The position numbers and the translations under genes are program-made. Below, one piece after another: positions 9,932 to 34,419 of a DNA stretch of 64,000 nt (positions within the stretch are counted from its first letter, which is position 1; each line of letters starts with the position of its first letter). The notes below the pieces were generated by a model. The model did not search any database. It was given only the letters and a program-made list of their open reading frames with translations, and was not told the DNA's origin. Origin of the DNA: Olleya sp. Bg11-27 (lineage in GTDB: Bacteria; Bacteroidota; Bacteroidia; Flavobacteriales; Flavobacteriaceae); the NCBI RefSeq assembly GCF_002831645.1, contig NZ_CP025117.1, positions 563,514 to 627,513 of the forward strand, read 5' to 3'.

Positions 9932-12019
9932 ATGAAAAAACAACTACTTACCACCGCTCTTTTCTTATTTATTTTCACCATTCGGGCCCAAACTAATAGT
10001 AATAATTGTATTGAAGCTAATGCTGATACCACAATTTCTGGATCTGGCTTATTTTCGATAAATGGAACAATAAACGGTACCGAAATCCCAGATCCAATAT
10101 GTGCAGTAAATAGCACAGGAGCCACAAATGGAGAATGGTACCGATACATACCTAGTAATGATTACACCGTTACCATAACTACCGATTTAACCCAAAACGC
10201 TGGTCTAGATACACGATTACATATTTATTCCGGTACTTGTGGCAGCTTAATTTGTGTTGGTGGCGATGATGATTCGGGTGATGGTTTTTTATCCGAAGCC
10301 AGCTTTAATGCAATGTCTGGTACAACCTATTACATTGCTTTTGATGATAGATGGAGTGATAGCGGATTTGATTGGGAGCTAACCGAAGGTCCTGTCGTAG
10401 TTCCGCCACCATCAGCCCCAATAACTTTTACACAACAAAGTCTATCTACAACTGGAGTAAACAGAGCCATTGTCGATATGAACGGAGATTTTTTAGACGA
10501 TATTGTATCTATTACAGACACAAACATTAATATAAATTACCAATTAACTTCTGGCGATTTCAACTCGGTAAACATTACAACGTCAACCGCCGACTTTACA
10601 CCAAATTGGAGTCTAGCTGCTGCCGATTTTGATGCCAATGGTTACACTGATTTATTATACGGAGCAGGTCAAGGTGTCACCTTCATGAAAGCCAACAACA
10701 CAGGAACTGGTTTTACTGAAATTTCAGGCTCAGAATATATTTTTTCTCAACGTTCTAATTTCGTAGACATCAACATGGATGGCCATTTAGATGCTTTTGT
10801 TTGTCATGACGTACAACCCAATGTTTATTTTTTAAATGATGGAAACGGTAATTTGCTATACAATCAAACAGCCACATCCAATGCTCCTTTTAATTTAGGA
10901 GATTATTCCTCTGGTGGTAATTATGGATCCATCTGGGTAGATTATGATAATGACGGAGATTCTGATATGTTTATTGCAAAATGCGGAGGAGAAGAAGCTA
11001 GAAGAACAAACCAAATGCATAGAAATGATTCTTATTACGACACAGGAAATAACCTAATCGTTTCCTATACAGAAGTCGCTTCACAAATAGGATTATCAGA
11101 CCCAATGCAAACTTGGTCTTCTTCTTGGGGTGATTTTGACAACGATGGAGATATGGATGTTTTTATTGGCGCGAGCTCTGGAGCTCACAAACTAATGCGT
11201 AATAATCTAGATATAGGTACAGGAATAGTCACTTTTACTGATGTAACAGCTAATTCCGGTATTTCTGACATGATTGCAACAGGTATTGAAAATGTGACTT
11301 ACGATTTTGATAACGATGGTTATTTAGACTTAGCCTCTAATGGTAATTTACTTATTGGTAATGGAGATATGACATTTTCCTATTATGAAAACAGTTTGCC
11401 ACCCGCAGGATCTTTCGGAGATTTAAACGCCGATGGGTTTATGGATGCCTTTAGCAGTGGAGGAACTATTTATATGAATGATACCACAGATAACAATTGG
11501 ATAACAATCAATACCGTAGGTAACGCTAGTAACATAAATGGTATTGGAGCAAGAATAACTATAGAAACTCCAGCAGGTCCACAAATTAGAGATGTAAGAA
11601 GTGGCGATGGCTTTAGATACATGAACACACTTAACACACATTTTGGGTTAGGCACCGCTACAACTATAACTAGTATAATAATAGAATGGCCGTCAGGAAT
11701 TGTAGATACTATTTTAAACCCTTCAACCAACCAAATACTTAACTTAATAGAAGGCTCCCACCAACTCAGTATAAACGAATTTTTATTATCAAACTTAATA
11801 TTATATCCTAACCCAACGAGTCATAGATTAAACTTAAATAGCACAAACTACACCTTAGAGAATACTGCTTTTGCAGTATTTGACATGAACGGTAGACAGG
11901 TTTTAAAAGGAAAGCTAGTCAACAATAGTATTGATGTTTCTAAAATACAATCTGGAAATTACATTTTAAAATTAAATAACAATGGAAAGGTAAAAGCTCA
12001 AAAGTTTATTAAAAAATAA
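9932..12019 (+). CDS. FG-GAP/VCBS-repeat ASPIC-UnbV (CRTAC1-family) protein with T9SS C-terminal sorting domain
   Basis: Repeated DxDxDGxxD segments (DFDNDGDMDVFIG, DYDNDGDSDMFIA) and an ASPIC/UnbV-like segment GARITIETPAGPQIRDVRSGDGF. The C-terminal ~80 aa (LYPNPTSHRLNL...GNYILKLNNNGKVKAQKFIKK) is a typical Por/T9SS type-A CTD. Confidence 0.7.
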   Translation: MKKQLLTTALFLFIFTIRAQTNSNNCIEANADTTISGSGLFSINGTINGTEIPDPICAVNSTGATNGEWYRYIPSNDYTVTITTDLTQNAGLDTRLHIYSGTCGSLICVGGDDDSGDGFLSEASFNAMSGTTYYIAFDDRWSDSGFDWELTEGPVVVPPPSAPITFTQQSLSTTGVNRAIVDMNGDFLDDIVSITDTNININYQLTSGDFNSVNITTSTADFTPNWSLAAADFDANGYTDLLYGAGQGVTFMKANNTGTGFTEISGSEYIFSQRSNFVDINMDGHLDAFVCHDVQPNVYFLNDGNGNLLYNQTATSNAPFNLGDYSSGGNYGSIWVDYDNDGDSDMFIAKCGGEEARRTNQMHRNDSYYDTGNNLIVSYTEVASQIGLSDPMQTWSSSWGDFDNDGDMDVFIGASSGAHKLMRNNLDIGTGIVTFTDVTANSGISDMIATGIENVTYDFDNDGYLDLASNGNLLIGNGDMTFSYYENSLPPAGSFGDLNADGFMDAFSSGGTIYMNDTTDNNWITINTVGNASNINGIGARITIETPAGPQIRDVRSGDGFRYMNTLNTHFGLGTATTITSIIIEWPSGIVDTILNPSTNQILNLIEGSHQLSINEFLLSNLILYPNPTSHRLNLNSTNYTLENTAFAVFDMNGRQVLKGKLVNNSIDVSKIQSGNYILKLNNNGKVKAQKFIKK

Positions 12020-22222: not shown

Positions 22223-23134
22223 ATGCTCGACGTTAAAAACCTTACCTTTTCTTATAATAAAACACCTGTTTTAAAAGATATTTATTTCACTGCTAATCAA
22301 GGTGAAAATGTTGCCATTATTGGCGAAAGTGGCTCAGGAAAAAGCACCTTGCTAAATCTTATTTTTGGCGAATCCGACTTAAATCAAGGCCAGATTTTCT
22401 GGAAAGACAACGAAATTTTAGGCCCTAAATACAATTTAGTTGTCGGTTACGAATTCATGAAATACGTCTCTCAAGAATTTGACTTGATGCCTTTTATAAC
22501 CGTTGAAGAAAATATAGGCAAACACCTGTCTAATTTTTTTCCAGAAGAAAAAAAAGAACGCACCGCAGAACTTCTAGAAGTCGTAGAGCTTACAGAGCTT
22601 GCTAAAACCAAAGTAAAAACTTTAAGTGGTGGACAAAAACAACGTGTAGCATTAGCTCGTGCGTTAGCAAAACAGCCCGAAATTATTTTATTGGACGAGC
22701 CTTTTAGTCATATTGACAACTTCCAAAAACAATCGCTTAGACGTAATGTGTTTAGATATTTAAAAGATAAAAACATTACATGTATCGTTGCAACCCACGA
22801 CAGAGAAGATGTTTTAGGTTTTGCAGACAGAATGATTGTTTTATATGACAACAAAATTGTTGTTAATGATAGCCCAGAAAATTTATTCAAAAATCCAGAA
22901 GCACCATTAATAGCTTCGTTTTTTGGTGAGTTTAATATAATTAACGCCTCGATAATTTATGCGCATCAATTAAAAATGGTATCACATTCTGAGCTTAAAG
23001 CGACTGTAATACATTCTTATTTTAAAGGACACTACTACTTAATTGAAGCTTTATTAGATGACGATATTGTGTTTTTTGAAAACAAAATTTTATTAGAAAA
23101 AAATCAAACCGTTTATCTTCAAAAACAACTATAG
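22223..23134 (+). CDS. ABC transporter ATP-binding protein (solo ATPase)
   Basis: Walker A GESGSGKST, signature LSGGQKQRVALARAL and Walker B ILLDEP. Start moved to the ATG after the upstream terminator; the track ORF starts at 22193, inside the hairpin. Confidence 0.8.
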   Translation: MLDVKNLTFSYNKTPVLKDIYFTANQGENVAIIGESGSGKSTLLNLIFGESDLNQGQIFWKDNEILGPKYNLVVGYEFMKYVSQEFDLMPFITVEENIGKHLSNFFPEEKKERTAELLEVVELTELAKTKVKTLSGGQKQRVALARALAKQPEIILLDEPFSHIDNFQKQSLRRNVFRYLKDKNITCIVATHDREDVLGFADRMIVLYDNKIVVNDSPENLFKNPEAPLIASFFGEFNIINASIIYAHQLKMVSHSELKATVIHSYFKGHYYLIEALLDDDIVFFENKILLEKNQTVYLQKQL

Positions 23135-24850
23135 ATCTTCACGTTCGGCATACTGCAATTCATTAGGTAATTCCACTGAAGAAAACTCCAAATGCAATAC
23201 ACGACGTCTTTTTTGCACCGTTGTTTGAGAAGAGGCATGCAATAATAAAGGTTTTATTAACTGCACACCGCCAGCAGCAACTTCACTGACAAAGGGAATT
23301 GAATTATTAGAAATAAGTTGTATTTCTTCATCATTTAAACGTTTATTGTGTGACCCCGGAATCACTTTTAAAGCCCCATTTTTAATTGTCGTATCATCCA
23401 AATGAATACGCATCGCGAAAGTGTTTTTAGAAATATTTTCAGGTGGACAAACACTAATGACTCCTTTTTTATTAGTCCATGACTTAAACCCCTCAATTTC
23501 TACTTTTTCAGAAACATTTATAGGTACATCTTGATGCCAGCTAACATACCAATTGTCCTTTGGTGATTTATCAAAATAAATAGCTTTAGTTAAAAACACG
23601 TTTTTACTGATTGAGTTAATCAGTTTCTTACAATTCTTATTAAATAAAATATCTTTTAATTCTGGCACCTTTTTTAAGACTTCACGCATTCCAAAAGTCT
23701 GCTCACCATGCGTTTTTATATAAGTATCCAACCTCGCTTTTAGTTTTCTAATATCTCTTTTTGAATACACGTGATTTAAAATTCCAAAACCTTTATACTC
23801 TAATCGTTTTGCAACGGTACGTAGATTCTTATCATTAATTTCTGTCTCGTAAGCATCCACAGCATCATACAAACGTTCTTTTATATTTCGCTTTAAACGT
23901 TCTGGAGCAATTACTTTTACGCCTTCGCCTAGACCTAAAATTTCTTTTTCGAGCTCAAAATTTAGCTGCACGTCCAAAGCTATTGTTACACCATAATTAT
24001 CACGACTAACTTCTCTCTGAGAATGATGAAAAGGTTTCGTTAACACATAAGGCGCGTGTCTATGATTAACGTACAGCAACACAGCATCAGGGTCTAAATG
24101 TGGACTTACAGAAACCCCAATAACATCCTTATAATATGTTTCGGAATTAAATGTTGCATCAAAGACAAAACTATTTTCACTTTTATTTAAGGCAAATATC
24201 CGGTCTAAAGCTAAATTCATTACCCCTTCATTTTTGTTTCGTTTACCTATAATAAACCAGCGGTTTCTAAATTCTTTTAGCAAATACGGATGAAACACAA
24301 AGGTGTTTTCTTGTCTAGCCTTAAAGGATTGGTAAGTAATATCTATCGCTTCTTTCTTCAAAATAAACTGATAGAGTTTATCTAAATATTTTAAACCTTT
24401 TAAGTTGTCATTTTTTTCGAAATCTATTAATGACTTCTCATGTGTTTTTTGAGTATACACATGGTCTTCTAGTTTTTGAACCATGCTACCCAATTCATCA
24501 AAATGAGAAAAACCTTGAAACTGTTTTAAAAAAGAAACCGCTTCCGACAACTTAGTTAAATCTTGATTAGAAATCGGACTATTTGTAATACTATACTCTT
24601 CAGTTTCATATTTATAATACTTCCTATTGTAAACTACAATTGGTGCATTATAACCCAATTTGTCGCTACGCATCATTTGCAAGTCCAATTGCACTGTACG
24701 TTTACTAACATCTACATCTTTACCTTCATAGTCATACAAGGCATCAGAAACCGCTTCAATTAAATCATTAAGCGTCCATTGCTTAAAATTGTTTTGAAGG
24801 CATTTATCTATGGTTTTGTAGCGGATTAATGCGTTTTTATTTACTGCCAT
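23129..24850 (-). CDS. WYL-domain transcriptional regulator (HTH-WYL-WCX) fused to C-terminal PhyH-like Fe(II)/2OG dioxygenase domain
   Basis: N-terminal HTH (VSKRTVQLDLQMM). WYL core ITYQSF...FHPYLLKEFRNRWFIIGK...LALDRI. WCX-like segment, then WHQD, ALKVIPGSH and LLLHASSQ facial-triad motifs of phytanoyl-CoA dioxygenase-type oxygenases. Confidence 0.6.
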   Translation of the reverse strand: MAVNKNALIRYKTIDKCLQNNFKQWTLNDLIEAVSDALYDYEGKDVDVSKRTVQLDLQMMRSDKLGYNAPIVVYNRKYYKYETEEYSITNSPISNQDLTKLSEAVSFLKQFQGFSHFDELGSMVQKLEDHVYTQKTHEKSLIDFEKNDNLKGLKYLDKLYQFILKKEAIDITYQSFKARQENTFVFHPYLLKEFRNRWFIIGKRNKNEGVMNLALDRIFALNKSENSFVFDATFNSETYYKDVIGVSVSPHLDPDAVLLYVNHRHAPYVLTKPFHHSQREVSRDNYGVTIALDVQLNFELEKEILGLGEGVKVIAPERLKRNIKERLYDAVDAYETEINDKNLRTVAKRLEYKGFGILNHVYSKRDIRKLKARLDTYIKTHGEQTFGMREVLKKVPELKDILFNKNCKKLINSISKNVFLTKAIYFDKSPKDNWYVSWHQDVPINVSEKVEIEGFKSWTNKKGVISVCPPENISKNTFAMRIHLDDTTIKNGALKVIPGSHNKRLNDEEIQLISNNSIPFVSEVAAGGVQLIKPLLLHASSQTTVQKRRRVLHLEFSSVELPNELQYAEREDL

Positions 24851-26153: not shown

Positions 26154-26843
26154 ATGAAACCAGTAAACATAAAAACAACGCGACAAAAAGAAGTGCGTCG
26201 TTTACAAAAGAGACAACAGGAAATTTGGAAACTTCAACGAGCGTTAGGTTATACAAAATTAGATAAACCTATACGTCACGGTTGGTACAAGGAAATTGTA
26301 ATGACTAATCGTATAGAAATCTATAGAAATAAGGATTTGATTTTAGAAATCTACGAAAAGCTTGAAAAAGCCTTTTGGGCGAAGACTAAAGAGAAAGCTG
26401 CCTTTAAATGGCAACACCAAACATCAATACATCTTATTTATAAAGATATTCCGACTCTAAGTAAACGGCAATTTAATAAGCTAAGTGATGGCGCAAAACA
26501 GTTATGTATTCCGTTTGAATATTATACGAGAAAACAGAAATTAAGAACTCGATTTTATACTAAAATTCCAAAAGGCTCTTATAAAATTAAATTTACAAGA
26601 GCATACATAACACATAGACAACGTATAGATCCTGAAATAATTAGCGAAACCGATTACATCGCTTCAAAGCTTAATAAAAAAGGATATTATAACATCGCAG
26701 AAGCTTCAAATCCTTGGAAAGATGACTGGAATGACTCTAGTTACAAACAAGAACAATTAAGAACAAAAAGAGGTCTGAATGAGCTAAAAAAATATGCTCT
26801 AGAAGATATCATTAAAGACACCATATTATGGGAAAGAAATTAA
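26154..26843 (+). CDS. Hypothetical highly basic protein, translationally coupled to rtcB
   Basis: 229 aa, Lys/Arg-rich (TRQKEVRRLQKRQQ...). Overlaps the rtcB start by 16 bp. No known domain recognised. Confidence 0.45.
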   Translation: MKPVNIKTTRQKEVRRLQKRQQEIWKLQRALGYTKLDKPIRHGWYKEIVMTNRIEIYRNKDLILEIYEKLEKAFWAKTKEKAAFKWQHQTSIHLIYKDIPTLSKRQFNKLSDGAKQLCIPFEYYTRKQKLRTRFYTKIPKGSYKIKFTRAYITHRQRIDPEIISETDYIASKLNKKGYYNIAEASNPWKDDWNDSSYKQEQLRTKRGLNELKKYALEDIIKDTILWERN

Positions 26844-28219
26844 GCGGAAAAGACTTAATCAAATTAGGCTTTCCAAAAAACAACAGTATTAATGTGACTT
26901 TAGGTCAAATTAATCGCTATCAAAAACGCGTTAAAAAAGAACGGATATTAGAAGACGCAAAAAAAGTATTATTACATCCAGAAAATTATAAAGGCGATGG
27001 CATTTGGGGAAAAATAGCAGAAAGCCTGCTAGACCCAGTAAACGTAACAAAGCAAAAGTTAAACACACATCGTGTGCCATTTCAAATTTATGGAGAGCAT
27101 GAGATTGACGACCAAGCAAAATACCAATTGTACGACGCTTTAAAACTACCTATTGCAGTTGCAGGTGCTTTAATGCCCGATGCCCACGTAGGTTATGGCT
27201 TACCAATTGGTGGTGTTTTAGCAACAAAAAATGCAGTAATTCCTTATGGAGTAGGCGTAGATATTGGATGCAGAATGTGTTTAACTATTTATCCAGTAAA
27301 AGCTTCTTATTTAAAAGGTAAAAAACATCAATTGGAGACTATTTTGTCTGAACACACAAAGTTTGGAATGTATGAAACACATAAAACTAAGCATGATGAT
27401 CCTATTTTTGAGCGTGACGAATTTAAAATCATTCCGTTAGTAAAACGCTTAAAAGACAAAGCCTTTAAGCAATTAGGAACCTCTGGTGGAGGGAATCATT
27501 TTGTAGAATTTGGAGAGGTAAGCATTACAGATATTAATAACGAATGGGATTTACCATTAGGAGAATACCTAGGTGTTTTATCGCATAGTGGCTCACGTGG
27601 TTTAGGCGCGAACATCGCTAAACACTATACATATTTAGCAACAAAGCAATGTCCGTTACCAAAACACGTACAACATTTAGCATGGCTAGATTTAAATACA
27701 CACGACGGACAAGAATACTGGTTAGCTATGAATTTAGCTGGAGATTATGCACAAGCATGCCATGACAACATTCATAAGCGAATAGCCAAATTATTGGGAG
27801 AAAGACCGCTTGCTAAAATAGCCAATCATCACAATTTTGCTTGGAAAGAAAATGTGAACGGAGAAGACTGTATAGTCCACAGAAAAGGAGCAACACCAGC
27901 TAAAAAGGGAGCGCTAGGTATTATTCCAGGATCTATGACGGCACCAGGGTTTATAGTACGCGGCCTAGGAAATAAAGACAGCTTACAATCGGCATCGCAC
28001 GGTGCGGGCAGACTATTATCTAGACGACAATGTAAAATGACATTAACACAAAGTGCCGTAAAAAAAGAATTACAAAAACACGACGTCTCTTTAATTGGCG
28101 GTGGTATTGACGAAGCTCCAATGGCTTATAAAAACATTGAAAGCGTCATGCAAAACCAATTAGAACTAGTGGAAGTCGTTGGCAAGTTTACGCCTAAAAT
28201 TGTAAGAATGGCAAGGTAA
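26828..28219 (+). CDS. rtcB: RtcB-family RNA 3'-phosphate ligase (paralog 1) with ~90-aa N-terminal extension
   Basis: Motifs MPDAHVGYG, GGVLA, GGNHF, SHSGSRGLG, ANHHNFAW and HRKGATPA. Confidence 0.9.
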   Translation: MGKKLSGKDLIKLGFPKNNSINVTLGQINRYQKRVKKERILEDAKKVLLHPENYKGDGIWGKIAESLLDPVNVTKQKLNTHRVPFQIYGEHEIDDQAKYQLYDALKLPIAVAGALMPDAHVGYGLPIGGVLATKNAVIPYGVGVDIGCRMCLTIYPVKASYLKGKKHQLETILSEHTKFGMYETHKTKHDDPIFERDEFKIIPLVKRLKDKAFKQLGTSGGGNHFVEFGEVSITDINNEWDLPLGEYLGVLSHSGSRGLGANIAKHYTYLATKQCPLPKHVQHLAWLDLNTHDGQEYWLAMNLAGDYAQACHDNIHKRIAKLLGERPLAKIANHHNFAWKENVNGEDCIVHRKGATPAKKGALGIIPGSMTAPGFIVRGLGNKDSLQSASHGAGRLLSRRQCKMTLTQSAVKKELQKHDVSLIGGGIDEAPMAYKNIESVMQNQLELVEVVGKFTPKIVRMAR

Positions 28220-28286
28220 TAAACGTTAGGCGTTACCTAAAAAGGTCGGGCTCTCGGCAGTCGCTCTCTTCGAGGAGCTTCAACAA

Positions 28287-28877
28287 ATGCCTCCATCCCT
28301 AACGCAAAAAAAACAGAAAACAATGGAACAAAATCATAACATAAAAAGATACGGAGAACAATGGCCAAGCTATAGAATAAATCAAGGTTTGGACATTTTA
28401 AATAAATTAAAAACATGGGTTGTAATTTCTGGAGGTTGGGCATGGCATTTTATGTCACCAGAAGATCATACAGAATATAAACATGCACACGACCATAAGG
28501 ATATAGACATTTTTGTAAACCCTAAAAATGTGGCAGAAGTAATGGTAATATTAACTAAAGACGGTTTTGAAAAAGTCTGGACAAGATACGACCACATGCC
28601 AAGTAATGAAAACTTTAGACGCTACGAGAAATTAGATTGGTTAGATAATGGGAAGCAAGTAAGAGTGACAATAGATTTTTTCGAATCTAGTACTGTTGAA
28701 ACTACTAAAGTAAACGGTTGGAATTTAGTAGAACCTAAAACCTTATTAAGTTATTACTCCAACATTCATTCTAGTGATAAATGCTGGGCAGTAAAAGCAG
28801 CACTGCAATTAATTGAAAAAGGAAAAAGCCCCATAGGCAGTGCTTTATTATCTAAAAATCCTTTAGAAAAAGTATAG
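28287..28877 (+). CDS. Lnu/ANT(2'')-like nucleotidyltransferase-fold protein (start may be Met at 28323)
   Basis: VISGGWAWHF...HKDIDIFV matches the hG[GS]...DhD minimal NTase signature. It resembles lincosamide nucleotidyltransferase LnuA (LDGGWGVDVL...HRDIDIDF). Confidence 0.5.
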   Translation: MPPSLTQKKQKTMEQNHNIKRYGEQWPSYRINQGLDILNKLKTWVVISGGWAWHFMSPEDHTEYKHAHDHKDIDIFVNPKNVAEVMVILTKDGFEKVWTRYDHMPSNENFRRYEKLDWLDNGKQVRVTIDFFESSTVETTKVNGWNLVEPKTLLSYYSNIHSSDKCWAVKAALQLIEKGKSPIGSALLSKNPLEKV

Positions 28878-28993
28878 TAAAAATATTAGGGTGTTCCTCT
28901 AAAAAGAAACGGACAAGCATGCGCTTTGGTATGACTTAGCGCATCCGTTTTAAGCTACAGAAATAACTTAATAATTAGAAAACAATATTAAAA

Positions 28994-29689
28994 ATGAAAA
29001 CTAAAATAATACAAATAACCTCAGGTCGAGGACCATCAGAATGCTGTTGGGTTGTGGCTCAAGTTCTAAAACATTTTTTAGAAGCTATAAAGCAAAATGG
29101 TATTGATTATAAAATATTACAAAGAGAAAAAGGCATTGAAAACATGACATTACAATCTGTCACTGTTCAATTAAAAGCAAAAACTCTAAATCAATTTTTA
29201 AGTCAATGGATTGGCACAATACAGTGGGTAGGTGTTTCAAAGTTCAGACCACAACACAAACGCAAAAATTGGTTTGTTGCTTTAAATGAAATAGAACAGA
29301 AACAACACTTTGAAATTAATGAAAACGATATTTCATATCAAGCCACAAGAAGTTCTGGACCTGGAGGACAACATGTAAACAAAGTAAGTTCGGCTATTAG
29401 AGCTATTCACGAACCAACTAAAACACAAGTATTAGTCATGGACAGTCGCTCGCAACATCAAAACAAAAAAATTGCTAAAACACGTTTACAAGAAAAAGTT
29501 ACAGAAATACAATTGCAAAGACTAAAGTCTAGCATTAAAAATCAATGGGAGAACCACTTAAACATAGAACGTGGTAATCCAATACAAGTTTTTAAAGGAT
29601 TCGATTTTAAAAAAAACACAATTGTAAAAACGTATAAAAAACAAGGTAATACATTAAAAAATGAATTGCGAGAACAATTAAACAACTAA
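28994..29689 (+). CDS. prfH: Peptide chain release factor H
   Basis: Matches E. coli PrfH: SGRGPSECC, GTIQW, RKNWF, RSSGPGGQHVNK (GGQ), SRSQHQNK and IERGNP. The short 231-aa form lacks the codon-recognition domain. Confidence 0.85.
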   Translation: MKTKIIQITSGRGPSECCWVVAQVLKHFLEAIKQNGIDYKILQREKGIENMTLQSVTVQLKAKTLNQFLSQWIGTIQWVGVSKFRPQHKRKNWFVALNEIEQKQHFEINENDISYQATRSSGPGGQHVNKVSSAIRAIHEPTKTQVLVMDSRSQHQNKKIAKTRLQEKVTEIQLQRLKSSIKNQWENHLNIERGNPIQVFKGFDFKKNTIVKTYKKQGNTLKNELREQLNN

Positions 29690-29693
29690 AACA

Positions 29694-30245
29694 ATGGACA
29701 CAAACTTGTTAAACAACTACGTGCTTAAAGCCATAGATGCTTATCCATATGAGTTAGAAGAAACCGTAGAAAATTTAAATTATGCCTTGTCTTACGAAAG
29801 CAATAACGCTTACGCCTTATACTTAATGGCACGTTTGCAGGCAGAGCAATTTGGAGACTACGAAAAAGCCAAGCACTATTATGCCGAAGCTTTAGCTAAT
29901 AAAATGGATTTTCAGAGAGCATACCCAAAATACATACAAGTATTACTGGATAACGAAGACTTAGATGAAGCCAAAAAACTAATTGATTTTGCCTTAACCA
30001 TAAAAGGCATTGACAAAAGTGCTATTTGGGAGAAACAAGCTCAGATTTTTGAAATAAAACAAGAGTACAAAACCGCAATTAAAACACTAAAGAAAGCAAA
30101 ATTATTTGGATTTAACAATGACTTTATAAGCTATATAGATGCTGAGATTTCAAGAAATAAAAACAAAATGAAATCTAAACAGAAGCCATCCAAAAGTAAA
30201 GCGAAGAAAAAAAAGTGTAGAAAAAAGAAGAAAAAAACAAATTAA
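29694..30245 (+). CDS. TPR-like helical protein with poly-Lys C-terminal tail
   Basis: Starts 5 bp after the prfH stop. Helical repeats (AYALYLMARLQAEQFGDYEKAKHYYAEAL). C-terminus KSKQKPSKSKAKKKKCRKKKKK. Confidence 0.45.
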   Translation: MDTNLLNNYVLKAIDAYPYELEETVENLNYALSYESNNAYALYLMARLQAEQFGDYEKAKHYYAEALANKMDFQRAYPKYIQVLLDNEDLDEAKKLIDFALTIKGIDKSAIWEKQAQIFEIKQEYKTAIKTLKKAKLFGFNNDFISYIDAEISRNKNKMKSKQKPSKSKAKKKKCRKKKKKTN

Positions 30246-30252
30246 ATCAAAC

Positions 30253-30271
30253 TACGCAAAAAGATTGCGCA
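30253..30271. promoter_or_regulatory. Operator copy 2 (TACGCAA-aaaga-TTGCGCA) plus conserved promoter module
   Basis: One mismatch to the palindrome at 24891. Followed by tataatatttgcagtgtaatta, which matches the Bacteroidetes -7 TAnnTTTG element. Upstream of the 30382 ORF and the tRNA-like array. Confidence 0.5.
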
Positions 30272-30381
30272 ATAGACTATAATATTTGCAGTGTAATTAA
30301 AAGGAAGTCTTTTGGAATCAGACTTTAAAAGAAGTTGCTCCACCAGACAAGGACGCTGGTGGAGCTTAATTTAAAAAAGAT

Positions 30382-30675
30382 ATGGAACATTTAAACATTG
30401 ACACATTATTAAAAAAGAACGAAGACTTTTGGAAATCACTTGAAATACACTGCTTAGTTGAATGTTGTGGCATAGATGCTTTTGCTTTTGATAAAAAAAA
30501 CATTCAAAAAGAGAGTATAAACCATGACGTATCAGACATACAAAATAATTTGAAATTAATAATTAAACAAATTGACATCACAGAGTCAAAAAAAATATCC
30601 AGTGACTTATTCAATTTATATGAAAACAAAAAAGTTTTTAAAAATAGAATTAACGAGATTTTAAAAGTTCTTTAA
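30382..30675 (+). CDS. Hypothetical small protein
   Basis: 97 aa. Immediately upstream of the tRNA-like array and downstream of operator copy 2. Confidence 0.35.
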   Translation: MEHLNIDTLLKKNEDFWKSLEIHCLVECCGIDAFAFDKKNIQKESINHDVSDIQNNLKLIIKQIDITESKKISSDLFNLYENKKVFKNRINEILKVL

Positions 30676-30687
30676 AATATTAAAATT

Positions 30688-30772
30688 GGAAGTATTGAGC
30701 AATTGGTTGGCTCGCGAGACTATAACTCTCGTTTCTTAATTGAACATGTAGGTTCGAGTCCTACTACTTCCA
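30688..30772 (+). tRNA. tRNA-like gene, type-II (long variable arm) cloverleaf with non-canonical anticodon loop CUAUAAC (anticodon AUA)
   Basis: Acceptor ggaagta/tacttcc with G1-C72 and A73. D-arm gagc-aattggttg-gctc. Anticodon stem cgaga/tctcg. 16-nt variable arm. T-arm gtagg-ttcgagt-cctac. No encoded CCA. Tyr-like identity elements but A34 instead of G34. Confidence 0.5.
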
Positions 30773-30900
30773 CATCAAGCGTGTCTTGTTACGTGTTTCG
30801 GTATAGCACTATTGTATAAATCCTTGCGGTTTCGCATCAGGTTTTTATATCCAACTTGACTTGAAGGCTTTCGGTTATTTAGCCAAATAAATAATCTCCT

Positions 30901-31046
30901 CTATGTACGCAGGTTCGAATCCTGCCTTCATTAATTTGAAGTAGCTAAGTCCGGTTAAGCAATAGAAACAATCGCAGGTTCGAATCCTGCCAAGATCAAA
31001 ATGATCTTGTGGTCGAGCGGTCAAAGACAATGGACTCACACTCCAT
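30901..31046 (+). ncRNA. Array of tRNA-derived fragments: two T-arm units plus a split 3'-half/5'-half tRNA-like unit
   Basis: T-arm gcagg-ttcgaat-cctgc at 30909-30925 and 30974-30990. The second is followed by caagatc-aaaat-gatcttg, an acceptor 3' strand directly joined to a complementary acceptor 5' strand. Then comes a type-II-like D-arm gtc-gagcggtcaaa-gac and an anticodon-like hairpin atgga-ctcacac-tccat. No downstream T-arm. Confidence 0.4.
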
Positions 31047-31450
31047 TATTTCACGAAGAAGGTCACTTATAAAAATCGACCACTAAGTGTGTCTCACTTA
31101 AAAAGGCAAAAAACAAAGTAAAGGCGAACTCGCTAAAACAATTTGTTGTTGCAGCAGTCCGGAAAATACCTTGAAATACAAATGTATTTTTAGATGCCTT
31201 AGGTATTCTTTTAAAGACTCATTAGTTAAAATACAGTTTGAAAATCATTCAAATTACAATTAATTAATCTTCAATAAAACGCTACCTAAATCGCTTCAAA
31301 TCAATTGTCTTTCCGTAGTTAAAAGGATGGTTTGCTTTTGCTTTGTTTTAATAGAGAATAGCCATTTCAGCTTGACTGAAATTCTATTATAAATGATTAA
31401 TAGTTCTGAAATAAAAAACAAAAACAACAGAACATTAAAAACAAAATAAG

Positions 31451-32551
31451 ATGAAAAGAGTAAGAATTCATGCAGGAAAAGTCGGTTTAGTATTTAAAAA
31501 CGGTGATTACAAACGCGTCATCACGCAAGGATCACATTGGCTAACGTTTAATGAGCATGTAATAGATTATAGCTTAAACCTCGCCTTTAATACACCAACA
31601 GCATTGGAGGTTTTACTTAAAGATCAAACATTAGCAGCGATGTTACACGTAATCAATGTAGAAGACAATCAAATGGTATTAATGTATAGCAATAGCAACT
31701 TTAAAAACGTATTAACAGCAGGACGACATACCTTTTGGAAAGACTTAATCCACTATAAATTTACCACTGTAGATTTAAACGATATTATTATTCCAGAAAC
31801 AATAAACAAAGCCTTATACACCAACACTGTTTTACGTCCATACATCCGTACGTTTGAGGTTGCTGCACATGAAAAAGCAGTTTTAATTATTGATGATACA
31901 TTTGATAAAATTTTAGATCATGGCACATACCATTACTGGAGAAATAATCAAACTATTAAAATTGCGAAAGCAGATTTACGTCAATTACAATTAGAAGTTG
32001 GAGGTCAAGAGTTATTAACCAAAGACAAAGCCACAGTGCGCATTAATTTTTACGCACAATACAAAGTTACAGATATCGAAACTGCTTTATTGCGTAACAA
32101 AGATTACGAAAAACAATTGTACACCAACTTGCAATTAGCATTAAGGTCTTTTATTGGAGTCTACACTTTAGACGAGTTGTTAGACCAAAAAGACAACATT
32201 GCAAAAGCAGTAGTAGAAGATGTACAAACACAAGCACAAAAGTTAGGTGTAACCGTTTTACATGCAGGTTTAAGAGATGTGATTTTACCAGGAGACATGA
32301 AAGAAATCATGAATCAAGTATTAATCGCTCAGAAAAAAGCGCAAGCCAATGTAGTAACAAGACGAGAAGAAACCGCGTCTACACGTAGCTTGTTGAACAC
32401 TGCAAAATTAATGGAAGACAACAGCATGTTGTTTAAATTAAAAGAGATGGAATATGTAGAGAAAATTGCTGAAAAAATTGGCGAAATTACAGTGGCTGGA
32501 AACGGTAACGTAATCGAGCAATTAAAAGATATTTTTTCTGTAAATAAGTAA
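31451..32551 (+). CDS. SPFH/band-7 (stomatin/prohibitin/flotillin) domain protein
   Basis: SPFH-like core (QELLTKDKATVRINFYAQYKVTD...LRDVILPGDM...IAQKKAQANV) with a C-terminal coiled-coil. Length 366 aa. Confidence 0.75.
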   Translation: MKRVRIHAGKVGLVFKNGDYKRVITQGSHWLTFNEHVIDYSLNLAFNTPTALEVLLKDQTLAAMLHVINVEDNQMVLMYSNSNFKNVLTAGRHTFWKDLIHYKFTTVDLNDIIIPETINKALYTNTVLRPYIRTFEVAAHEKAVLIIDDTFDKILDHGTYHYWRNNQTIKIAKADLRQLQLEVGGQELLTKDKATVRINFYAQYKVTDIETALLRNKDYEKQLYTNLQLALRSFIGVYTLDELLDQKDNIAKAVVEDVQTQAQKLGVTVLHAGLRDVILPGDMKEIMNQVLIAQKKAQANVVTRREETASTRSLLNTAKLMEDNSMLFKLKEMEYVEKIAEKIGEITVAGNGNVIEQLKDIFSVNK

Positions 32552-32823
32552 GGTTATGGCGTATTCCAAACAAAAAAATTGGGTCACGCTTTCCGTTATA
32601 CCTTTTTAAAACGTCATTGCGAGCACAAAAGACGTGGCAATCTACTAAATCACAACTCTTAACAAAGTTAGGTTTTAGGTGGTTTAAAAAGGATGCCGCA
32701 TCAAATGCTTTGCATTCACGACTTCTTATTTAAGAAAATAAGAATGAACAAGTAATCGCTTACGCAGAACATGTTTATTGTGAATAGTCATCATTCTTGA
32801 CGTGTTTAAAAATTATACTAGTT

Positions 32824-32908
32824 GTTACTCCTGCAAGGTTTCCAAAACCTTGTAGGTTTAATAAACATAAAACCACACCTACAAGGTTTTAGAAATCTTG
32901 CAGGACAA
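32824..32908. repeat. Extended imperfect inverted repeat (long interrupted hairpin)
   Basis: tcctgcaagg-tttccaaaa-ccttgtagg ...22 nt... cctacaagg-ttttagaaat-cttgcagga. Both stem segments are exactly complementary. Confidence 0.45.
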
Positions 32909-32919
32909 TTAAACTTAAC

Positions 32920-32967: not shown

Positions 32968-34419
<1,452 letters not shown>

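Follow-up and report, generated by a model that had tools for sequence, protein, structure and literature searches.

A 64,000-nt stretch of the Olleya sp. Bg11-27 genome (NCBI RefSeq assembly GCF_002831645.1, contig NZ_CP025117.1, positions 563,514 to 627,513 of the forward strand; hereafter the window) contains a gene for a small nucleotidyltransferase (NTase) that lies between the genes for the RNA ligase RtcB and for PrfH. The open reading frame (ORF) had been noticed in the initial annotation, and profile scores bear out the identity of both neighbors. RtcB (26828..28219, + strand, as are all genes of the operon) is a divergent protein of 463 aa with an N-terminal extension of ~90 aa; it scores 275.6 bits with PF01139 and 145.5 bits with the TIGR03073 'release_rtcB' model, under the cutoff of 271.8, and flavobacterial RtcB forms a divergent branch. 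PrfH (28994..29689) has 231 aa, contains a GGQ motif and ends in a basic C-terminal tail of 27 residues; it scores 217.9 bits with TIGR03072 (cutoff 166.65) over residues 6–204. Ahead of RtcB, and overlapping its start by 16 nt, lies a gene for a very basic protein of 229 aa (26154..26843; isoelectric point (pI) 9.9) that has no family match, and a 183-aa TPR protein with TPR Pfam matches (29694..30245) begins 4 nt past PrfH.

The maximal ORF between RtcB and PrfH spans 28287..28877 and corresponds to 196 aa. Its end and strand agree with the initial annotation; the start, however, does not, since an alignment of 29 orthologs showed that the homologs begin at the methionine encoded at 28323, with the pattern M-[GE]-x-x-H-N. 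The in-frame extension of 12 codons (28287..28322) is non-conserved, is missing from all homologs and is probably untranslated. Moreover, the ATG at 28287 lies within an inserted GC-rich repeat, and in three related loci that carry the same element (L001, L004 and L011) the equivalent upstream frame is broken by stop codons. We therefore take 28323..28877, encoding 184 aa, as the real coding sequence; homolog starts, substitution ratios and an AlphaFold2 (AF2) model are all consistent with this conserved frame.

A search of 5.8 billion proteins gave 591 homologs of the NTase, the best 120 of which are 180–186 aa long and 57–98% identical to it. Against eight close relatives, the ratio of nonsynonymous to synonymous substitution rates (dN/dS) was 0.05–0.12 for the NTase, falling between the values obtained for RtcB (0.02–0.07) and PrfH (0.07–0.23) in the same comparison. 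Since a chance ORF would show neither the homologs nor the constraint, we can discard that possibility; judging from the sequence, the gene is expressed, and purifying selection acts on it to a degree similar to that for RtcB and PrfH.

In order to define the genomic context of the NTase, one genome per GTDB species was scanned, and the best 80 of 229 NTase-encoding loci (designated by L numbers) were analysed. All 80 belong to the Flavobacteriia and include Bizionia, Lacinutrix, Winogradskyella, Tenacibaculum, Aquimarina and Chryseobacterium. The order RtcB–NTase–PrfH on one strand was found in every one of them, with a median gap of 15 nt between NTase and PrfH (60 nt or less in 59 of the 80). 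PrfH is followed by a TPR gene in 71 loci, and RtcB has the gene for the 229-aa basic protein ahead of it in 27. Given this invariant order, the frequent TPR partner and the low dN/dS values, we conclude that the NTase is a fixed component of the operon and not a hitch-hiker. The initial annotation had described the gene as inserted between two normally adjacent partners, which misleads, since three genes in this order are normal for Flavobacteriia; E. coli, with its two-gene operon, represents a different architecture.

The signature on which the annotation was based, GGWAW...HKDIDIF, is present, with SGGWAW encoded at 28428..28445 and HKDIDIF at 28494..28514. The former (S36-G37-G38-W39-A40-W41) corresponds to the glycine motif hG[GS] of Pol-beta NTases. 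In an alignment of bacterial and phage members, S36, G37, G38 and A40 are invariant, and G37, G38 and A40 remain so in the most divergent set aligned. The glycine motif is followed by a family-specific His/Asp loop, H49-T-E51-Y-K53-H54-A-H56-D57-H58-K59, which leads directly into the catalytic D60-I-D62-I-F (together 28467..28514). Of these residues, H49, E51, H56, D57, H58, D60 and D62 do not vary among the bacterial and phage sequences aligned, and H49 and H56 are unchanged even in the most divergent members. Because this loop fills the interval, G38 and D60 are separated by 22 residues, compared with 9–13 in canonical Pol-beta NTases. The third catalytic carboxylate is found on the strand T116-I-D118-F-F (28668..28682), where D118 and F120 are invariant across bacteria and phages and D118 is present in 28 of the 29 orthologs. 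Finally, a conserved motif of the C-terminal domain, H149-S-S-D-K-C154-W155 (28767..28787), is invariant at H149, S151, C154 and W155 among the orthologs, and at H149 also when phage members are included. The 29 orthologs further share, without exception, S36, G38, W39, A40, W41 and H42 (G37 nearly so), then H49, E51, K53, H54, A55, H56, D57, H58 and K59 directly before D60-I-D62, and K84, W86, T87, Y89, D90, E96, F98, R100, Y101, E102, R114, T116, I117 and F120 in the middle of the protein. Thus hG[GS], [DE]h[DE]h and the later third carboxylate, the motifs by which Pol-beta membership is recognized, are all present, and the protein, its catalytic triad being intact, is probably an active, minimal NTase within the Pol-beta superfamily.

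The initial annotation had likened the protein to lincosamide and aminoglycoside nucleotidyltransferases (Lnu and ANT(2'')), a resemblance that falls below every curated cutoff. With PF10706 (Aminoglyc_resit, ANT(2'')) the NTase scored 19.2–19.4 bits, under the gathering threshold of 21, and the match covered only positions 6–63 of the 149 of the profile; of 25 diverse family members, one reached E<0.01. The NCBIfam models for Lnu(P/D/C) gave 14–18 bits against cutoffs of 300–325, over residues ~45–103 only. Searching PDB sequences with the family profile produced no match at E<=10, and the Pfam scan gave none at E<=0.1 to RlaP (PF10127) or to DUF1814/AbiEii. A HMMER scan of 1.84 billion cluster representatives retrieved only 121 at E<=0.001. 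The family is therefore best described as small, self-contained and distinct, and it has neither a Pfam nor an NCBIfam model.

These results bear on the possibility that the NTase acts on small molecules, as an O-nucleotidyltransferase like Lnu and ANT(2''), and inactivates a ribosome-targeting antibiotic, either as a hitch-hiker or as the chemical-defence arm of an operon that protects the decoding center. Besides the subthreshold scores, no tblastn match was found among 72,556 plasmids, and the gene is under purifying selection and keeps its position in the operon at a spacing from PrfH that lies in the range of coupling. The annotation had allowed for a resistance gene carried in unrelated contexts between mobile-element signatures; the distant homologs instead sit in phage-like contigs, with no resistance or mobile-element genes among their neighbors. 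On the basis of family cutoffs, plasmid search and synteny, a mobile resistance gene was rejected, and we regard antibiotic modification in general as improbable.

The AF2 model of the NTase (predicted local distance difference test score 88.6) contains the alpha-beta-alpha-beta-alpha-beta NTase fold. In Foldseek comparisons its template modeling scores reached only 0.4–0.5, placing it among the minimal NTases. Superposition on LnuA or ANT(2'')-Ia matched no more than 121–128 of the 184 residues: the N-terminal core aligns, but the C-terminal parts that bind the antibiotic in those enzymes differ, and the NTase lacks their plasmid or mobile-element context. As modeled, the fold itself does not choose between functions, because minimal NTases include antibiotic-modifying enzymes as well as toxins that modify tRNA 3' ends. 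The latter raise the possibility of a MenT/AbiEii-like toxin that blocks tRNA 3' ends as part of a toxin–antitoxin or abortive-infection module. Although such toxins share the minimal fold, we found no sequence match to them, no antitoxin-like partner and no meaningful PADLOC match for any protein of the operon. The gene is chromosomal, vertically conserved with low dN/dS and embedded in a repair operon in all 80 loci, so that a toxin function seems very remote.

A counterpart of the NTase has been noted before. Burroughs & Aravind (2019, PMC6514570) described, in the passage concerned, a Pol-beta-superfamily 'RFH-associated NTase' accreted to RFH(PrfH)–RtcB together with TPR, Zn-ribbon and charged helical genes, stated that it is not specifically related to RlaP, and proposed that, like RlaP, it restores nucleotides lost from damaged RNAs. 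The neighbor set of the Olleya and related loci (PrfH, RtcB, TPR and Zn-ribbon/charged proteins) is the same; the TPR protein is listed there among the RFH–RtcB accessories, and the 229-aa basic protein fits the charged helical class. The two are almost certainly one family, matched here by the description of the neighborhood and not by sequence. The association of the NTase with PrfH–RtcB is hence not new. The passage in that source devoted to the family is a single sentence without biochemistry, and it does not mention huge-phage members, linkage to tRNA arrays or the His/Asp loop. The present analysis adds to this description how strict the synteny is, the family signature, the finding that the proteins fall outside the Lnu, ANT(2'') and RlaP families, the members in huge phages with their links to RtcB and tRNA genes, and the unusual tRNA-like genes around the operons.

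In E. coli, PrfH releases the peptide from ribosomes damaged by colicin E3, and RtcB2 religates the 16S rRNA; the rtcB2 and prfH genes usually overlap (PMC9304027). The flavobacterial operon shares this core pair but differs in having the NTase between its members, a tailed PrfH, and TPR and basic accessory proteins. Approximately 30% of PrfH proteins are reported to be of the PrfH-CT type, mostly flavobacterial (PMC12829566), and the Olleya protein fits this type since 27 residues extend past the end of the PrfH model. Neither of these experimental studies of RtcB–PrfH (PMC9304027, PMC12829566) mentions the NTase.

The nearest parallel by context is RlaP, which is encoded between rtcB and rtcA, occurs in jumbo phages as well and adds one or two nucleoside monophosphates (NMPs) to RNA 3'-OH ends (PMC12776372; PMC7824862). 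RlaP and the NTase share the superfamily fold, adjacency to an RNA ligase gene and a distribution over bacteria and huge phages. They differ in that the NTase is smaller (184 aa), carries the signature SGGWAWH...HxExKHxHDHKDxD, is partnered with PrfH rather than RtcA and has no PF10127 match at E<=0.1.

Homologs of the NTase were also found in viral sequence collections. IMG/VR contains 12 loci, on 11 distinct contigs, that encode proteins 36–54% identical to the NTase, and a further homolog is encoded by the 735-kb uncultured phage LR756501 (INPHARED), giving 12 distinct phage contigs in all. The contigs measure 65–735 kb; 10 of the 12 IMG/VR loci are on contigs of 208–619 kb, with G+C contents that range from 26 to 63%. 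The phage proteins retain S36, G37, G38, A40, H42, H49, E51, H56, D57, H58, D60, D62, R100, D118 and H149. More distant metagenomic members likewise occur in phage-like contexts.

No PrfH gene was seen near the NTase homolog at any phage locus. An RtcB gene, in contrast, lies within 8 kb of it on 4 of the 12 distinct contigs, and in one case (L095) begins ~240 nt downstream of the NTase. If each phage is assumed to carry one randomly placed RtcB, the chance of observing four or more such contigs is 0.006 or less. On five distinct contigs the NTase is located inside or beside a cluster of 1–16 tRNA genes, and at L091 and L096 tRNA genes abut it. The common factor of the bacterial and viral contexts is thus RtcB and tRNA genes, not PrfH. 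Huge-phage homologs beside RtcB and tRNAs are a further argument against antibiotic modification. Other neighbors of the phage genes mostly had no Pfam match or matched DUF7873, DUF5915 or DUF3307, in addition to a ribose-phosphate pyrophosphokinase and an M23 peptidase, and none of these is decisive.

A link to tRNA genes was also detected in the bacteria. Of 40 loci from marine Flavobacteriaceae, 19 (L001–L005, L007, L010, L012, L013, L015, L019, L022, L024, L026, L029–L031, L037 and L076) have an array of 5–19 tRNA genes just past the operon and on its strand, ~2–5 kb downstream of the NTase. Long tRNA arrays with RNA-processing neighbors that include rtcB are known from other phyla (PMC8421152). 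Patterns of encoded CCA and of position 74 in the array tRNAs are unreliable, owing to the end coordinates given by ARAGORN.

Taken together, we suspect that the NTase is an RNA-end nucleotidyltransferase that works with RtcB as a functional analogue of RlaP, a reading to which we give about even chances; it is probably an RNA-repair helper rather than an antibiotic-resistance gene. In the proposed scheme, the operon [basic protein]–RtcB–NTase–PrfH(CT)–TPR would rescue ribosomes stalled by RNA damage and religate the cut RNA, with the NTase acting as a fixed, subunit-like component of the system in Flavobacteriia. The enzyme would transfer one or a few NMPs, without a template, to the ribose hydroxyl at an RNA end that has been damaged or processed. 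Candidate substrates are the ends of tRNA, tRNA-like RNA or 16S rRNA. This addition would restore or condition the ends, so that the RNA is functional once RtcB has repaired it; for the unrelated RlaP of RtcB–RtcA operons and jumbo phages, this role has been proposed and in part demonstrated. The initial annotation had already raised tailing, healing or marking of RNA ends; the context, namely the operon in all 80 loci and the phage links to RtcB and tRNA genes, speaks for it, and from that context we infer the activity itself, as well as the RNA substrate, the choice of end, the cooperation with RtcB and any role of the His/Asp loop.

Several observations weigh against this assignment. The case for an RNA-repair activity is drawn from context, and the closest fold is that of an antibiotic enzyme. 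RtcB joins 3'-phosphate or 2',3'-cyclic phosphate ends to 5'-OH ends, and for that reason an enzyme extending 3'-OH ends does not obviously feed it. The NTase has no recognizable RNA-binding domain, the pI values of the family span 5.8–9.5 and are thus not uniformly basic, and the DxD motif is lost in some distant members. None of the 40 Chryseobacterium loci has an adjacent tRNA array. In the phages, RtcB is missing from the surroundings of the gene on 8 of the 12 contigs, that of the 735-kb phage among them, and tRNA genes are missing on 7; for the 735-kb phage and six others, neither was found within the DNA examined.

A different target must also be weighed, since minimal Pol-beta NTases include the MNT antitoxins, which AMPylate proteins. 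By nucleotidylylating a protein, the NTase might neutralize an incoming RNase toxin, in the way that HEPN toxins are AMPylated by MNT antitoxins, or might serve as an on–off switch for RtcB, PrfH or a ribosomal protein. The gene lies so close to PrfH as to suggest a physical complex, a protein interface could be formed by the conserved His/Cys-rich surface, and the operon is a counter-toxin system (PMC9304027; PMC6514570). However, among the top matches neither sequence nor specific fold points to MNT or another protein-AMPylating family, neutralizing a toxin does not call for co-localization with RtcB or tRNA genes in phages, and RlaP, the closest analogue in terms of context, labelled RNA and left protein unlabelled (PMC12776372). 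We consider a protein target unlikely.

An extension of the RNA-end reading concerns the His/Asp loop, whose invariance would possibly be explained if it formed a second metal site that serves to heal or activate ends. On this more speculative proposal, which we find doubtful while still worth stating, the NTase would be a new kind of RNA-repair enzyme of Flavobacteriia and huge phages, with a second metal-dependent activity in the loop (H49-x-E-x-K-H-x-H-D-H-K). The loop would open or remove a 2',3'-cyclic or 3'-phosphate, or would make an RNA(3')pp(5')N end; the enzyme would heal and rebuild the ends of tRNA, tRNA-like RNA or rRNA and pass them to RtcB, and its substrates would include the insert-bearing tRNAs and permuted Y-RNA-like modules that lie beside the operons (described below).

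To our knowledge, no system other than RtcB–PrfH rescues a toxin-damaged ribosome and also repairs it. Should RNA ends be conditioned for RtcB by the NTase, the accepted two-step model of release followed by ligation is incomplete for the flavobacterial branch. In that case, the phage members beside RtcB and tRNA genes would constitute a second NTase lineage, independent of RlaP, in the arms race over tRNA and rRNA. Since the NTase is small, appears soluble and has obvious catalytic residues, its function can be tested directly.

Some phage and metagenomic NTases carry Zn-ribbon insertions or C-terminal tails (CTKCGW...C.LCGY; L092:8001-8729, L097:8001-8897, and the proteins P0125 and P0212), and stand-alone Zn-ribbon proteins are encoded in some of the bacterial operons. 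A Rosetta-stone link between the fused and stand-alone forms was considered and rejected: no significant similarity was detected, and the likeness is therefore one of analogy only.

Extra genes of three kinds, stand-alone Zn-ribbon genes among them, are found within the operon in other genera; the NTase–PrfH gap exceeds 500 nt in 15 of the 80 loci, and the inserts examined there contain such genes. The first encodes a conserved protein of 313–316 aa with the motifs FGCTAF and LHARNLDWW (L002:6645-7619, and L012, L013, L015, L016, L030 and L039). The second encodes a multi-Zn-ribbon protein of 191–201 aa with a basic C-terminal helix (L005:6645-7250, and L014, L017, L056, L068, L070 and L078), and the third a small Zn-ribbon protein (MCRYA.YSYKSHYAC) of ~151–190 aa (L016:6559-7023, L018:5434-5889 and L025:5369-5941). 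The latter two fit the accessory classes of PMC6514570.

In the window, the tRNA array is reduced to a single tRNA-Tyr gene (30688-30773) with the anticodon AUA, compared with GUA in the orthologs of L003, L004 and L037. Several related loci contain tRNA-Tyr paralogs in which a structured insert of 48–54 nt directly follows position 37 (loop CUGAAA / insert / A), which is the canonical site of archaeal and eukaryotic tRNA introns. They are located at L002:10872-11002, L005:10491-10622, L029:9010-9143, L037:11882-12019, L038:11870-12007 and L076:~10199-10330. The L002 paralog scores 41.7 bits with the Rfam tRNA model and has the predicted mature anticodon GAA. These inserts may be introns, or the genes may be decoys or pseudogenes.

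A further type of element, present as one or two genes per locus, has normal acceptor, D and T arms, the anticodon arm being swapped for a conserved hairpin, ACUAUUCGCUAUGAAAAAGCAACAAUAGUUCCUAU. Such genes were found 200–900 nt past the TPR gene in L018, L021, L022, L023, L025, L037 and L038, and at L024:11534-11645; none was found in the window. The hairpin is common to two different tRNA bodies, shows a compensatory change in L024, and the genes score 46–48 bits with the Rfam tRNA model.

The window does contain two tandem, circularly permuted tRNA-like modules (30899-31050). In each, the stem UCUAU/AUAGA closes the module; there is a T arm, GCAGGTTCGAATCCTGC, and a D arm, and the acceptor-like hairpin between them is closed. 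This topology is that of the bacterial Y-RNA-like YrlA. Scores with the Rfam YrlA model were 27.9 bits in the window and 41.9 and 36.4 bits in L029, under the gathering threshold of 69, and the hairpins covary across four genera. No Rsr/TROVE partner for Y-RNA-like modules was present among the window ORFs scanned.

The window also encodes a second RtcB paralog, a divergent one (33016-34419, +; PF01139, 134 bits), 3 kb past the end of the operon. Ahead of it lie an SPFH/Band-7 gene (31451-32551, +), a gene that L027, L029 and L032 also have close to the operon, and an almost perfect palindrome of ~90 nt (32822-32912) that gives spurious Rfam microRNA matches.

Two noncoding elements flank the NTase gene. 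The first, mentioned above as the site of the spurious ATG at 28287, is a GC-rich element of ~78 nt in the RtcB–NTase spacer (28229..28306, +) with the terminal inverted repeat GGCGTTA...TAACGC. The initial annotation had recorded a GC-rich structured element immediately before the gene. The element is present; as a single sequence it folded no better than shuffled ones (z -1.06 and +0.38), and an alignment of seven copies gave a conserved consensus fold with three compensatory pairs. Copies 86–95% identical occupy the same spacer in L001, L004, L011, L012 and L039, and one is found elsewhere in L006 (10975-11060, -); the spacers of L002, L003, L009 and L010 have none. In the genomes sharing the element, dS of the flanking genes is 0.7–1.8. 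Given its presence in only some orthologous spacers and once elsewhere in L006, the element looks like a dispersed miniature repeat. An NTase leader or riboswitch was considered and rejected, as there was no Rfam match, single-sequence folding was non-significant and many orthologous spacers are devoid of it.

The second element is a stable hairpin (28907..28950, +; z -3.2 to -3.5 against shuffled sequences) in the 116-nt spacer between NTase and PrfH. Neither the rest of the window nor any of the 80 genome loci has a copy, and a conserved regulator was rejected since the hairpin is found in the Olleya genome only. Relatives, with their median gap of 15 nt, lack such a spacer. A lineage-specific insertion is one possible explanation of the hairpin, an internal attenuator another.

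Upstream of the operon and divergent from it, the window encodes a 573-aa protein (23129-24850, -) in which WYL and WCX domains are fused to a PhyH-type dioxygenase domain. The same gene lies upstream of the operon in L002, L003, L005, L011, L029, L033 and L076, and its product may regulate the operon. On the downstream side, a DUF6331 gene (30382-30675, +) is located between the TPR gene and the tRNA remnant, and a conserved sequence of ~50 nt right after the TPR stop codon (30250-30300) is common to at least 15 related loci.

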